A DNA stretch of 64,000 bases, from IMG/VR virus record IMGVR_UViG_3300018080_000100; one strand, written 5' to 3'. Below the pieces are notes generated by a model that was not told the origin of the DNA, did not search any database, and worked only from the letters and a program-made list of their open reading frames with translations. The position numbers and the translations under genes were made by a program. The stretch's first letter is position 1; each line of letters opens with the position of its first letter. Positions 41,303-48,597 of this stretch are shown here, piece after piece. The DNA is from a virus.

Positions 41303-43192
41303 CTAGGTTTTAGGCGGCCTCAACACGTCCTTCGGCCAATTCCGACCAAACTCAGTGCCCTCGGCCATAGCCGGGACAAAGCTCGTACCCTTGGTGTCGG
41401 ACACAGCGCCACGATGCGTCGCGCTGAGTAGGCTTTTCTTCTGATTCGAACCCAGGAATCTGGTCATCCAGTCAGGATCATGACCGATCGAGGCCATGGC
41501 CCTGACCATGTGCGGGCGAAACGCCGGCTCGGTGTCGTGCGCCTCGACCGACTTCACGCCGAATTCTTCGAATACTGGCAGCATTGATGGCGTTATCCGG
41601 GTGCCGATCGTGTAGTGGAGCACCGGACGCTCCAGATACTTGCCTACAGCGTACTGCGGCTCAAACTGGGCCGAACCGTCGCGTGGCTGGTATCCGCGCT
41701 CAAATTGCTGGTACGGGATGACATCGCCTGGAACGTGGCCGTCATCCTCGTCCACCATCTCTACGTGATCGATCAGTCCTCGGGCGAGCAGCTCGATGTT
41801 CCGGCGGTTGGCGTACATGCCTCCGGCTCTGTACGCGTCTGCGAAGGTGTCGACGAAGTATCTTCGTCCTTCGCCGATTCCCTTATGCTTGACAATCTCT
41901 GAAGGATTCGGGATGCCGTCGCTGATGACGTCACCGGCCTCGACTGTATCTCCTCTCTCAACTTGGAGATCAAACCCCGGGAGCACGAAGTGTCTCTGTC
42001 CGCTAATGGTAACGTACCGACCACCTGCCGGCGCATCTTCGACGGCCGTCACCTTCCCGTCGAGCTGGGCATGGGCTGCGCCTCCTTTGAAGGTTTTTGG
42101 CACTTGCACGAGCTGGTTGACGTGTTGGAAGCCGGTGACGGACTGCGCTTCTCCTTTGACTCCACCTGAATGCTTTGAGGATAGCTGACCTTGCGTAAGC
42201 TTCTCGCTGAGTGCTTGTGCCGCCGCGACGCCAACCATGTCGCCAACCGGTGATAGGCCACCACGCTCACGTATACCAACATCACGAGAATACACCCCAG
42301 AGGCAGGCCCTCCCACCATTGGACTACGGACAAGAATACGCTTAACACCTTGATTCTCCAGGTCCTTCAAGATCTTCGGGGTAAGGACGGTGTTCCGCTC
42401 ATAATCACCAGCTGGGGACGCCAACAGTGCTCCTTCACTGTCAACGTCGGTCACGTCGACTGGCAGGCCCCGTATCGGCGCTCCTTCGCCCGGTTCCTCA
42501 TCGTCATCAGAAGCCGTGACGAGTAGTCGGTGTGCCAGCTGGTTAAGTTGCTTCGAGAAGAAGCCCGCATCTTGGGTCGCAAATTTCACGTCGATCAGAC
42601 CCTTGCGCGCGCCATACGTAGCGGCCCAGAACTCCGCAGGCCGCAGACCCTCGGCGAAGCTTGTCTGTACTGGAAACGGAATGACGTTCTCGTGGTGATC
42701 GACATACAGCATGTCGCCGCCGATCAGGCGCTTTAGTCCGGTGATACCCTTGCCACCGCCTACAAAGCCGGACACCACCTGGTCAGCCAGCGGGTTCTTG
42801 GCCTTCTTGGCGTCGGCAAGAATCTCCTTCTGTAGCCGTTCGTGCTCGACCGCAGTCGCTTCGACGACCTTCTCTTCCTTCTTCTCCTCACTCCACTTAT
42901 CGTTGGACAGGATGTCCCGGATGCGCCTGTTCAGACGCTGGCGAGACATGTGGACAGAAGGCGTTGGGCGCATATGACGCAGGCCAAAAGAACTCCCACC
43001 GGTTGTGAACGCAACGTCTCGGCCCACGTCAGACAGGCGTTTGGAAACTTCACGGTACTTCTCCGGATGTTCCTCGGCGACTTGGCGAAGCAGCGCGCTG
43101 ATGCCCTTCTTGTCCAAGACACGCGTGTAGTCACGCATATCCGACGGTAGCGCCTCGTTCACCATGAGTTGTCCGATGGTCGTACGAATCAC
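41303..43192 (-). CDS. multisubunit RNA polymerase beta' subunit, C-terminal half (rpoC2/gamma-beta' split-like)
   Basis: [13 protein letters not shown] resembles E. coli beta' TTVGRAILWMIVP. The bridge-helix region [35 protein letters not shown] resembles [64 protein letters not shown] resembles the trigger-loop region [28 protein letters not shown]. Confidence 0.85.
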   Translation of the reverse strand: [629 protein letters not shown]

Positions 43193-47200: not shown

Positions 47201-48597
47201 TTGTGCTGTGCGCGGACGTGCGGCTGCCCCGATTCAAGCTCTCCTGGAAAAGCGACGACAGCATCTGCAACATCCTGTGGTGACTTCCAGACGGTCTTGC
47301 CTGTCTTCGGATGAAGGAATCGCGAGTATATGCGTCCGTCAGGGCCTTTAAGCGTTCGGATTGATAGGCGGGAATCGATACCGATCTTGCCCGACTCTGG
47401 GGTGTGGACAGGATCAATGAATCCAAGGTGGCTAGGTTGAACATTACGCGCCTCGTCGGGAACCGAATCGGACGACGGGATGCCGCCCTCGCCCATACGC
47501 GTTACGCGCACGCGCTGGTCGTACAGTTCCGCTGGGTTGATTTCTTCTAGTGGATTGCCAAGCCCGGTCTCGAGGATAGCGCCTCGCACCATCTTTTGGA
47601 AGATGTTGGGCTGCAATCTGCTGAGATTACCGGGCAGCGTGGCCTTCCACAGCGCCTTACGCGCTTCGATCGCAGCCTTGTTGATGCGCTCGGCGAATAG
47701 ATCCTCCGGCCCGACAGTGCGCTGGAACGCCATGGCGTCGCGGTCGTCGGCATCTTCCTCGCCCTTGTGTACGCGCAGTAGCTTCTGTGTCGACGACAGG
47801 ATGACCTCGGGATCAACCTTAGCATAAGGTTTGCCGAGCGTACGCTTAGTGACCTCTGGGTCCAGTTCCATCTCGTCGAAAGCTGCACGGATAGCCTCGA
47901 ACATCTCCTGGTCGTCGCCAGCAGTGCCTCTGCGGACCAGTTTCTTGTACAGCTTCTTGATCGTGCCTGGGTCGCTCTTCTGCGCATTCGCAACGAACAA
48001 CTCGTTACCCCAGGCATCGCGTATCTGTCTGTCCGTGGCACCCAATGCTTTAAGCACCGGCATCAACGGCATGCGAGCTTGTCCGAACTGAATTCGAAAG
48101 ATACCTGTCTCTGGGTCCAGGAAGTAGCGGTGACCAAATCCCCGTGCAACATTGACATGGGACTCTAACTCGCCGGACTCCTTGATACGAGTGAAGATCC
48201 CAGGTCGTAACCGCATCTGGTGAGACAAGCTGTACTCGTTGCCGTTGAGGATGAACGTACCACGGGGAGTCATGTGCGGAATGCTGGCCAAGGTGACCCG
48301 CTTCTCGTCCACGACTTGCTGGGCGTCATCGTTTGTGCGCAGCTGGTATGTACCGCGCAAACGGCGGCCGAGCGAGCGGCCCTCTAGGACAGCGCGCTTC
48401 TCATCGGCCTTTGTGTATGTTTCTGGTCCGTCGTAGCCAACATTAGACAGGCCCAGTATGTATTTCTGGTTGGAGACGGGCGCCTGGTTCTGCGCCGCCG
48501 TAAGCGCATTCTGGTAGACAGCGGCACGCGTGGCATTCACGTCACCGAATGCGCGGGCCTCTGGTGGCCCGCCTTGCATATCCAGCAGAGGATTCAT
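44227..48597 (-). CDS. fused RNA polymerase beta subunit plus beta' N-terminal segment (contains the NADFDGD-type catalytic motif)
   Basis: The N-terminal part resembles beta: [101 protein letters not shown]. The C-terminal part resembles beta': [11 protein letters not shown] and [17 protein letters not shown]. The beta' zinc-finger cysteines are absent. Confidence 0.9.
   Translation of the reverse strand: [1456 protein letters not shown]

Follow-up and report, generated by a model that had tools for sequence, protein, structure and literature searches.

A two-chain RNA polymerase of bacterial type is predicted to be encoded at 41303-48597 of the 64,000 nucleotide (nt) stretch of viral DNA analysed here, IMG/VR record IMGVR_UViG_3300018080_000100 (hereafter the window; all coordinates are positions in it, and (−) marks the minus strand). 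The larger chain, 1456 amino acids (aa) long, is the product of a single uninterrupted open reading frame (ORF) at 44227-48597 (−) and joins a β subunit to the N-terminal part of β' (β'N); both double-psi beta-barrels, and hence both catalytic signatures, lie on this one chain. The smaller chain, β'C (629 aa; 41303-43192 (−)), holds the rest of β' with the bridge helix and the trigger loop. This core identity, which is drawn from sequence comparison, is held with high confidence, and it is likely, if less firmly so, that the two chains form a functional enzyme. The layout is widespread in uncultured phages, is present in cultured ones and is experimentally uncharacterised.

The original prediction, made from the sequence alone, had described the 1456-aa ORF as β joined to the first part of β' including the GADFDGD loop, and for the ORF at these coordinates Pfam, NCBIfam and BLASTP all agree. 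The Pfam domains found on the fusion are Rpb2_3 (E 5e-8), Rpb2_6 (E 1.1e-56) and Rpb1_2 (E 3.2e-23), with a weak match to Rpb1_1 (E 6.5e-5) that lies under the curated cut-off. Among NCBIfam models, rpoB (E 1e-83) and rpoC (E 9e-57) both matched and the top single model was that of the Helicobacter-type fused β/β' (1.8e-107), and the profile searches proposed as a check of the prediction assigned RNA polymerase domains with both libraries. The NCBIfam bit scores are far under the curated cut-offs (281.8 vs 801 for rpoB, 192.6 vs 963.5 for rpoC and 359.9 vs 5372 for the fused model), which indicates a homologue, not an orthologue, of cellular rpoB and rpoC. Searches of the PDB returned bacterial β (E 2e-66) and bacterial β' (E 2.9e-50). 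By BLASTP against the Salmonella subunits, fusion residues 96-983 correspond to β 117-1336 (of 1342) and residues 994-1420 to β' 22-514, and identity to bacterial subunits is 25-29%.

The β-like part (residues 1 to ~985; 45643-48597 (−)) was delimited by BLASTP and by a MAFFT alignment with Salmonella β and with the homologues from two cultured phages, gp206 of Salmonella phage Arash and D69_0261 of Vibrio phage D69. In this alignment the β insertions SI1 (225-345) and SI2 (938-1040) are missing from the fusion. The active-site motif of the β barrel, with K771 and K779, is at 46258-46293 (−) and aligns to the E. coli motif GDKMAGRHGNKG; we take the catalytic roles of these two residues to be those established for bacterial RNA polymerase. 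A junction of ~8-10 residues (45619-45642 (−), from BLASTP and alignment) leads from the C-terminus of β (~1336-1342) to β' ~20. The β'N part that follows (residues ~994-1456; 44230-45618 (−)) is equivalent to E. coli β' ~20-555 by BLASTP, NCBIfam, alignment and the PDB matches, and amounts to ~40% of β'. In the translation it carries the Mg-binding loop GADFDGD at residues 1364-1370 (44488-44508 (−)), which aligns to NADFDGD, with DFDGD beginning at residue 1366. It also keeps the β' clamp coiled-coil, the element that binds σ region 2.

The reading of the remainder of β', bridge helix and trigger loop included, as a separate 629-aa gene is borne out by a Pfam Rpb1_5 match (E 2.4e-20) and by alignment. 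BLASTP matches this protein to Salmonella β' 737-939 and 1196-1320, the PDB search returned bacterial β' (E 2.9e-36), and overall it is equivalent to E. coli β' ~570-1340 without SI3. On the NCBIfam rpoC model (rpoC_TIGR) the fusion stops at position 533 and β'C spans 548-1065, so the two pieces are contiguous and β' has been cut cleanly with nothing lost. The split point is directly before the conserved TTxGQ/R motif: the N-terminus of β'C reads M-I-R-T-T-I-G-Q and aligns to E. coli TTVGR near β' 570, and an M-x-x-T-T-x-G-Q start is common to all members of the β'C family. Alignment places the bridge helix at β'C ~190-224 (42521-42625 (−), corresponding to Salmonella β' 769-805) and the trigger loop, again without SI3, at ~324-363 (42104-42223 (−)), in which the His that corresponds to E. 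coli H936 is retained. The three Asp and both β Lys are conserved family-wide, as are the bridge helix and the trigger-loop His. As predicted, the pair is far smaller than its bacterial counterpart, with a summed length of 2085 aa vs 2749 aa for Salmonella β and β'.

The prediction that β' lacks its zinc-finger cysteines proved correct in a stronger form, as both the fusion and β'C contain zero Cys. In the alignment the N-terminal β' Zn ribbon (E. coli Cys70/72/85/88) is deleted and all four Cys of the second Zn site (E. coli Cys814/888/895/898) are substituted in the window's clade. The β'C proteins of Arash (gp216) and D69 (D69_0264) retain the four Cys of this second site, which suggests that zinc-site loss has been stepwise within the family. 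Among fusion homologues without inteins, 94 of 103 are Cys-free and nine have one Cys; Arash gp206 has one and the D69 fusion two. The predicted proteome of the window averages 1.37% Cys. Four more large Cys-free proteins are encoded in it, at 15620-17737 (705 aa), 31693-33024 (443 aa), 34633-35892 (419 aa) and 54913-58965 (1350 aa). It is a speculative thought that a lack of Cys might mark proteins that are packaged and ejected.

The fusion recurs well beyond this record. An identical protein is on record in several independently assembled contigs, and all of the 120 top homologues span the junction, either with 99-100% coverage or interrupted only by inteins. Most of them (103/120) are 1436-1521 aa long, and the remaining 17 measure 1791-1921 aa because they contain inteins; the longest fusion representatives reach 3350 aa. 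When a junction-spanning segment was searched against 1.84 billion cluster representatives, the best 150 clusters (50% identity) all had E < 1e-151, and the full-length entries in these best 150 carry the β C-terminus and β'N in one protein with the same end as that of the window. There are therefore at least 150 such clusters at 50% identity, with assemblies from JGI, ENA, NCBI and Logan, and family members occur in hundreds of assemblies, with 50-84% identity along the entire protein. The fusion is also a single ORF, at ~32% identity, in cultured phages, namely Salmonella phage Arash and three Vibrio phages (D69, D148 and D181), and all four have a separate β'C of ~606 aa.

Relatives of the fusion gene carry inteins, recognised by LAGLIDADG or Intein_splicing domains, at no fewer than eight conserved sites. 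These correspond to residues ~148, 383, 402, ~598, 773, 812-817, 905 and 1245 of the window's protein, which is itself intein-free, and insertion at at least eight conserved sites implies that the fusion gene is under strong constraint. A homing endonuclease was also seen inside the fusion gene of Vibrio phages D181 and D148.

The window derives from the genome of a jumbo myophage. The longest assembled contig with an identical fusion protein is 226,656 bp, and the polymerase module has a conserved order in 44 IMG/VR loci, on related contigs that reach 190-220 kb. Throughout the clade this order is constant: the fusion, a Met/Pro/Gly/Ala-rich protein, a protein of ~75-88 aa, β'C and a protein of ~800 aa. 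The product of 29536-30471 (−) is homologous to the major capsid protein of Arash (tblastn to gp226, E 1.7e-37, with a weak match to the major head protein family phrog_2522), which places the polymerase genes inside the structural block of a tailed phage. Two further products, those of 33128-34630 and 9875-11374, have matches among Arash particle proteins, and that of 9875-11374 is also a member of the baseplate wedge family. The polymerase genes lie within this block of head and tail genes, in the same orientation as their neighbours; almost all genes of the window are on the minus strand. Polymerase, capsid and σ genes are collinear between the window and Arash. The claim that the polymerase is phage-encoded is supported by the capsid homologue, by the baseplate wedge and by the relatives on 190-220 kb IMG/VR contigs. 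The structural and replication context that had been described was seen for the structural genes, while what else could be recognised, such as a thymidylate kinase and a ligase-like protein, belongs to nucleotide and DNA-end metabolism.

Much of the neighbourhood is unfamiliar to the databases. Searches of ~50 neighbouring ORFs against PHROGs, Pfam and NCBIfam left nearly all without a match and did not locate a portal, terminase or helicase in the window; by tblastn, the Arash portal, terminase, gp217 helicase and gp196 σ had no match in it either. A 131-aa ORF upstream of the module showed no similarity to Arash gp205. No match to the region was found at the DNA level in 50,697 phage records, and among 185,579 bacterial and archaeal species, with one genome for each, there was only a 3-kb fragment of a metagenome-assembled genome (MAG), giving no sign of a cellular home. 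The window has no tRNA genes, whereas Arash carries many.

Two small ORFs, one of them encoding a Met/Pro/Gly-repeat protein, had been noted between the polymerase genes. Both are present, and because they hold this place throughout the metagenomic clade they are considered to be conserved genes. The Met/Pro/Gly/Ala-rich protein (230 aa; 43454-44146 (−)) has an N-terminal, a central and a C-terminal helix, three short segments that are all conserved, and repeats of the type DPxxMGGAPPMDP. The second, conserved in alignment with its relatives, is a small protein of 87 aa (43189-43452 (−)), and the stop of its gene overlaps the GTG start of β'C by 4 nt, which suggests translational coupling. No recognisable Pfam or PDB relative was found for either protein, and their family profiles gave only chance-level matches in the PDB. 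When the sequences of the small ORFs that adjoin the Arash and D69 polymerase genes were read, no counterpart was recognised among them, which argues against the small proteins being universal core subunits.

The gene directly after β'C encodes an 802-aa protein (38805-41213 (−)) with weak similarity to Arash gp218, a 'structural protein', and in relatives a protein of ~800 aa is always found at this position. When it was considered as a portal or a polymerase factor, neither reading gained support and no fold was recognised; its AlphaFold2 model has a mean predicted local distance difference test (pLDDT) score of 69, with no significant Foldseek match in the PDB and only uncharacterised phage proteins in BFVD. 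Helicase genes adjoin the polymerase genes elsewhere in the family. In some metagenomic relatives (L014:14341-15834, and also L015 and L018) a helicase-like gene with GSGKT and DEAH motifs is directly after the fusion gene, and in Arash the 'DNA helicase' gp217, which is abundant in the particle proteome, comes directly after β'C. This recalls the Swi2/Snf2 helicase that is linked to polymerase genes in phiKZ-like phages, and no homologue of the polymerase-linked helicase was found in the window.

The original prediction saw neither α nor ω. Indeed, no α- or ω-like Pfam domain (RNA_pol_A, Rpb6-type) was detected in ~52 window ORFs scanned, and neither subunit is annotated in the complete Arash genome, but a σ70-family gene at 12240-12980 (−) had been overlooked. 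Its product is 246 aa long. A mechanical list of ORFs extends the gene to 13175, but the 64 homologues that make up the family are ~246 aa long, and translation therefore probably starts at the ATG at 12980. The jumbo contigs that carry these homologues also carry the fusion. As a single sequence the protein scores 24.9 bits with Pfam Sigma70_r3, just under the 25.3 cut-off, and its family profile matches SigB (E 3e-8, residues 44-240) and RpoS (E 3e-7, residues 10-230) in the PDB, covering regions 2-4. The AlphaFold2 model (pLDDT 81) gave 50 listed Foldseek matches in the PDB, all 50 of them σ-factor chains with a probability of 1.00, and hhalign aligned the protein to Arash gp10 (probability 98.7%, E 3.9e-16). 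The 246-aa protein is a member of the σ70 family with σ2, σ3 and σ4, the orthologue of Arash gp10, and a candidate promoter-specificity subunit. Its gene sits among baseplate and tail genes. Arash has two σ70-family genes, encoding gp10 (FliA/WhiG-like) and gp196 (RpoD/RpoS-like).

A survey of 8-mers in the intergenic regions found only words resembling ribosome-binding sites, and in a scan of 40.5-50.5 kb terminator-like sites were at chance level. The heptamer CCGATAA is present in 12 copies in the window vs 3.8 expected (~3-fold), a number that was reached in 0/100 shuffles. Five of its eight minus-strand copies, at 44189-44195, 30514-30520, 23363-23369, 35950-35956 and 2117-2123 (all (−)), are 13-64 nt upstream of start codons, including those of the capsid gene and of the Met/Pro/Gly-rich gene. 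Conservation of CCGATAA extends to just the closest relative (L007). The word matches the core of the σ28 -10 consensus, GCCGATAA, and gp10, the Arash orthologue of the phage σ, is of FliA/WhiG type; CCGATAA may be regarded as a candidate promoter element, as a lead and not as a result.

Protein data exist for one cultured relative. In the Arash particle proteome the fusion gp206 tops the spectrum counts, with 3516 spectra, 128 unique peptides and 100% coverage (PMC10585845). The β'C protein gp216 was recorded with 1210 spectra and σ gp10 with 467 spectra and 100% coverage (PMC10585845). In both Arash and D69 the polymerase genes are directly after the portal gene. A search of the complete Arash genome with the window proteins and with Salmonella β and β' revealed no polymerase paralogue; this phage has a single set.

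At the sequence level the fusion chain supplies the whole Mg-binding and NTP (nucleoside triphosphate)-binding centre, and β'C adds the bridge helix and trigger loop together with the remaining parts of the cleft. From these data a model may be proposed for how the enzyme works. The covalent tether between β and β' would take over the assembly role of the bacterial α dimer and ω, as suggested by the finding of neither subunit and by the loss of the zinc sites that aid β' folding. Severinov and colleagues reportedly showed that artificially fused E. coli β and β' remain active, and that E. coli β' split at the cyanobacterial site does so as well. Promoters would be chosen by phage σ70-family factors, which is consistent with the σ gene in the window, with its Arash orthologue in particles and with the retained clamp coiled-coil. 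The enzyme would be made late, along with the structural genes, and be carried in the head, so that it enters the cell together with the DNA and initiates early transcription. Pointing this way are the Arash proteome, the place of the genes in the structural block and the lack of a second polymerase. As the complete Arash genome has a single polymerase set, later stages of the cycle would probably be transcribed by newly synthesised copies of the same enzyme, perhaps together with another σ. Taken as a whole, a virion-packaged, σ-using two-chain polymerase without α or ω is somewhat more probable than all other arrangements combined. Of its parts, packaging in the virion is evenly balanced between true and false, and for σ dependence the chances are about equal.

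Several observations weigh against this model. The window covers 64 kb of a genome whose longest contig is ~227 kb, and a second polymerase set or genes for α and ω could be encoded elsewhere. The β flap-tip helix, which is the docking site of σ region 4, is 7 residues shorter in the alignment for the window's clade, and the trigger-loop Arg933 is replaced in β'C. The phage σ factors might act on the host polymerase instead, redirecting it in the manner of the T4 and SPO1 σ factors. The Arash particles were purified by sucrose gradient only, and the 116 proteins called 'structural' include ribonucleotide reductases and RNA ligases (PMC10585845). The authors of that study allow for contamination by abundant infection-phase enzymes (PMC10585845). 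Given these limits on purity, packaging is suggested and not proven.

These points bear most directly on a rival in which the enzyme is the same and is not a virion protein: the host polymerase would transcribe early genes, the phage polymerase middle and late genes in a T7-like manner, and detection in Arash particles would be carry-over. Such carry-over is compatible with the reductases and ligases among the 116 'particle' proteins and with the contamination that the authors raise, phage σ factors classically act on the host polymerase, and no capsid-targeting signal or protease site was identified. Against this, the Arash fusion is the protein with the highest spectrum count and its σ orthologue has 100% coverage; the genes are within the head and tail block in the same direction, directly after the portal in Arash and D69; and, as weak evidence, the 10 kb around the module contain no σ70-type promoter-like site where 2.6 were expected. 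We consider the non-virion account possible, if on the unlikely side. It is rather unlikely, in our view, that the family is a third architectural class of phage multisubunit RNA polymerase, namely a Cys-free, α/ω-less, tethered two-chain enzyme that is loaded into the capsid with its σ, ejected probably unfolded and able to transcribe independently of the host, with the loss of Cys and zinc being an adaptation to packaging and ejection and the small proteins dedicated assembly or packaging partners.

The remaining alternatives concern the genes themselves. A catalytically dead relic, retained as a structural or cargo protein, would account for the loss of both zinc sites and of Arg933 and for the shortened flap tip, but all catalysis-defining residues are kept family-wide, full-length identity is 50-84% across hundreds of assemblies, and intein homing sites mark conserved active-site motifs; degeneration of this kind is very unlikely. 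It is extremely improbable that the DNA is cellular, whether a bacterial rpoBC of Helicobacter/Wolbachia type or rpoB and rpoC genes recently captured from a host. The top NCBIfam model is the Helicobacter-type fused β/β' and the closest solved structures are bacterial, yet identity is only 25-29%, the score of 359.9 bits is far from the cut-off of 5372, β' is split and Cys is absent. The neighbours, moreover, are capsid, baseplate and phage-only genes, the relatives are on IMG/VR viral contigs, and the 185,579 cellular species yielded one 3-kb MAG fragment. The idea that a frameshift or mis-assembly at the junction had made one ORF out of an rpoB-like and an rpoC-like gene, which had been flagged for checking, is effectively refuted. 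There is no stop or frameshift in the continuous ORF, the identical protein is found on independent contigs, and the junction is kept in 120/120 homologues, in at least 150 divergent clusters and in four cultured phages, with Arash gp206 detected at 100% peptide coverage. At the sequence level the evidence that the fusion is not an assembly artefact is decisive.

A number of other genes in the window were recognised in passing. The Cys-free 1350-aa protein at 54913-58965 (−) has a segment resembling the LigD 3'-phosphoesterase (897-982) and a C-terminus resembling ATP-dependent DNA ligase (1009-1349). The product of 59743-61116 (−) combines 2H phosphoesterase ('Swiss Army Knife') and InPase domains, and its PHROG matches are giant virion or DarB-like proteins; the InPase domain is found in large polyvalent and ejected phage proteins. 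Two putative ORFs, at 6120-8282 and 25337-27181 (both (−)), stand out for a high Cys content (57 residues in 720 aa and 36 in 614 aa, respectively) and have no family match. A two-domain glycosyltransferase, with GT9 heptosyltransferase-like and GT2-like domains, is encoded at 3026-5035 (−), and the thymidylate kinase at 63172-63864 (−).

The family is very common in metagenomes, with at least 150 clusters at 50% identity and genomes of ~200 kb, and bears on how a two-barrel polymerase can be assembled without an α platform. Phage Arash on Salmonella Typhimurium offers a tractable model, and the small, Cys-free enzyme could serve structural and engineering work. No new principle is involved, as fusion, split, loss of α and ω and virion delivery are each known separately, and the interest is mainly for specialists in transcription and jumbo phages. 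The apparatus had been put forward as possibly undescribed, and no paper describing a phage β–β'N layout was found in a literature search that lacked most subscription journals; homologues are nevertheless already deposited, annotated as RNA polymerase and listed in the Arash particle proteome (PMC10585845).

The nearest known systems are Arash gp206 and gp216 (OQ632216; PMC10585845) and their counterparts in D69, D148 and D181, which belong to the same family and share the architecture of the window. The Arash-type fusion of 1525-1527 aa is 33% identical over 97% of the window query in one tblastn piece, and the Arash-type β'C of 606-609 aa has the same start position and is ~26% identical over 617 aa. 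In Arash nine other genes lie between the two polymerase genes, whereas in the window there are two small ORFs. The Arash annotation labels the proteins 'beta' and "beta'", without mention of fusion or split (PMC10585845).

Among uncultured tailed phages, some of them >200 kb, the mReC lineage of Weinheimer & Aylward (2020, PMC7481178) likewise has bacterial-like, alignable β and β'. Its data tables list separate, mostly neighbouring genes for β (999-1563 aa) and an unsplit β' (902-1038 aa), unlike the window (PMC7481178), and crAss-like phages are the only ones for which the paper speaks of fusion (PMC7481178). Identity of the window's clade with the published mReC lineage was rejected on this difference in architecture.

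The join itself, from the C-terminus of β to the N-terminus of β', is the same as in the rpoBC of Helicobacter and Wolbachia (NF007172, NF011417). Those proteins include a complete β' (~2840-2890 aa) and work with α and ω, whereas the window's chain stops after the β' barrel (~β' 555). The split has a parallel in cyanobacterial and plastid RpoC1 and RpoC2, where β' is likewise cut between the catalytic barrel and the bridge helix; both cyanobacterial NCBIfam models, rpoC1_cyan and rpoC2_cyan, gave a match. The likeness to the cyanobacterial split that had been proposed is close but not exact: the window's break is ~17 aligned residues upstream of the cyanobacterial γ/β' break, on the other side of the TTxGR motif, with the fusion ending at ~γ 559 of 624 and β'C residue 49 aligning to RpoC2 residue 32. 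Cyanobacteria also differ in that β is separate, α and ω are present, and β' has a large insertion.

Phage multisubunit polymerases are now discussed as two types, the heavily split enzymes of phiKZ/AR9 and the very divergent single-chain enzymes of crAss/YonO; the window's family is a distinct and much more bacterial-like solution, in which an undivided β is covalently linked to the catalytic portion of β'. Like it, the phiKZ/AR9 type is a phage two-barrel β/β' enzyme without α or ω, from genomes of ~200 kb or larger (PMC7598289, PMC7824862), and β' is split after the catalytic barrel in both. The phiKZ/AR9 type has two paralogous sets of 4-5 polypeptides, one form being packaged in the virion (PMC7598289, PMC7824862). 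Its β is in 2-3 pieces and never fused to β', in contrast to the whole and fused β of the window, and it has two sets and no sequence-recognisable σ70, whereas Arash has a single set and both the window and Arash encode σ70-family proteins. AR9-like vB_BpuM-BpSp and phage RP13 match β'C at only ~E 1e-4, and comparison with the PDB E-values places the enzyme nearer to the bacterial polymerases than to those of AR9 type. With crAss-like gp66, which is a virion cargo, and with YonO-type enzymes, the fusion shares the presence of both barrels in one polypeptide; those enzymes are too divergent for the β and β' profiles, while that of the window matches them at E 1e-57 to 1e-107 and requires a second chain.

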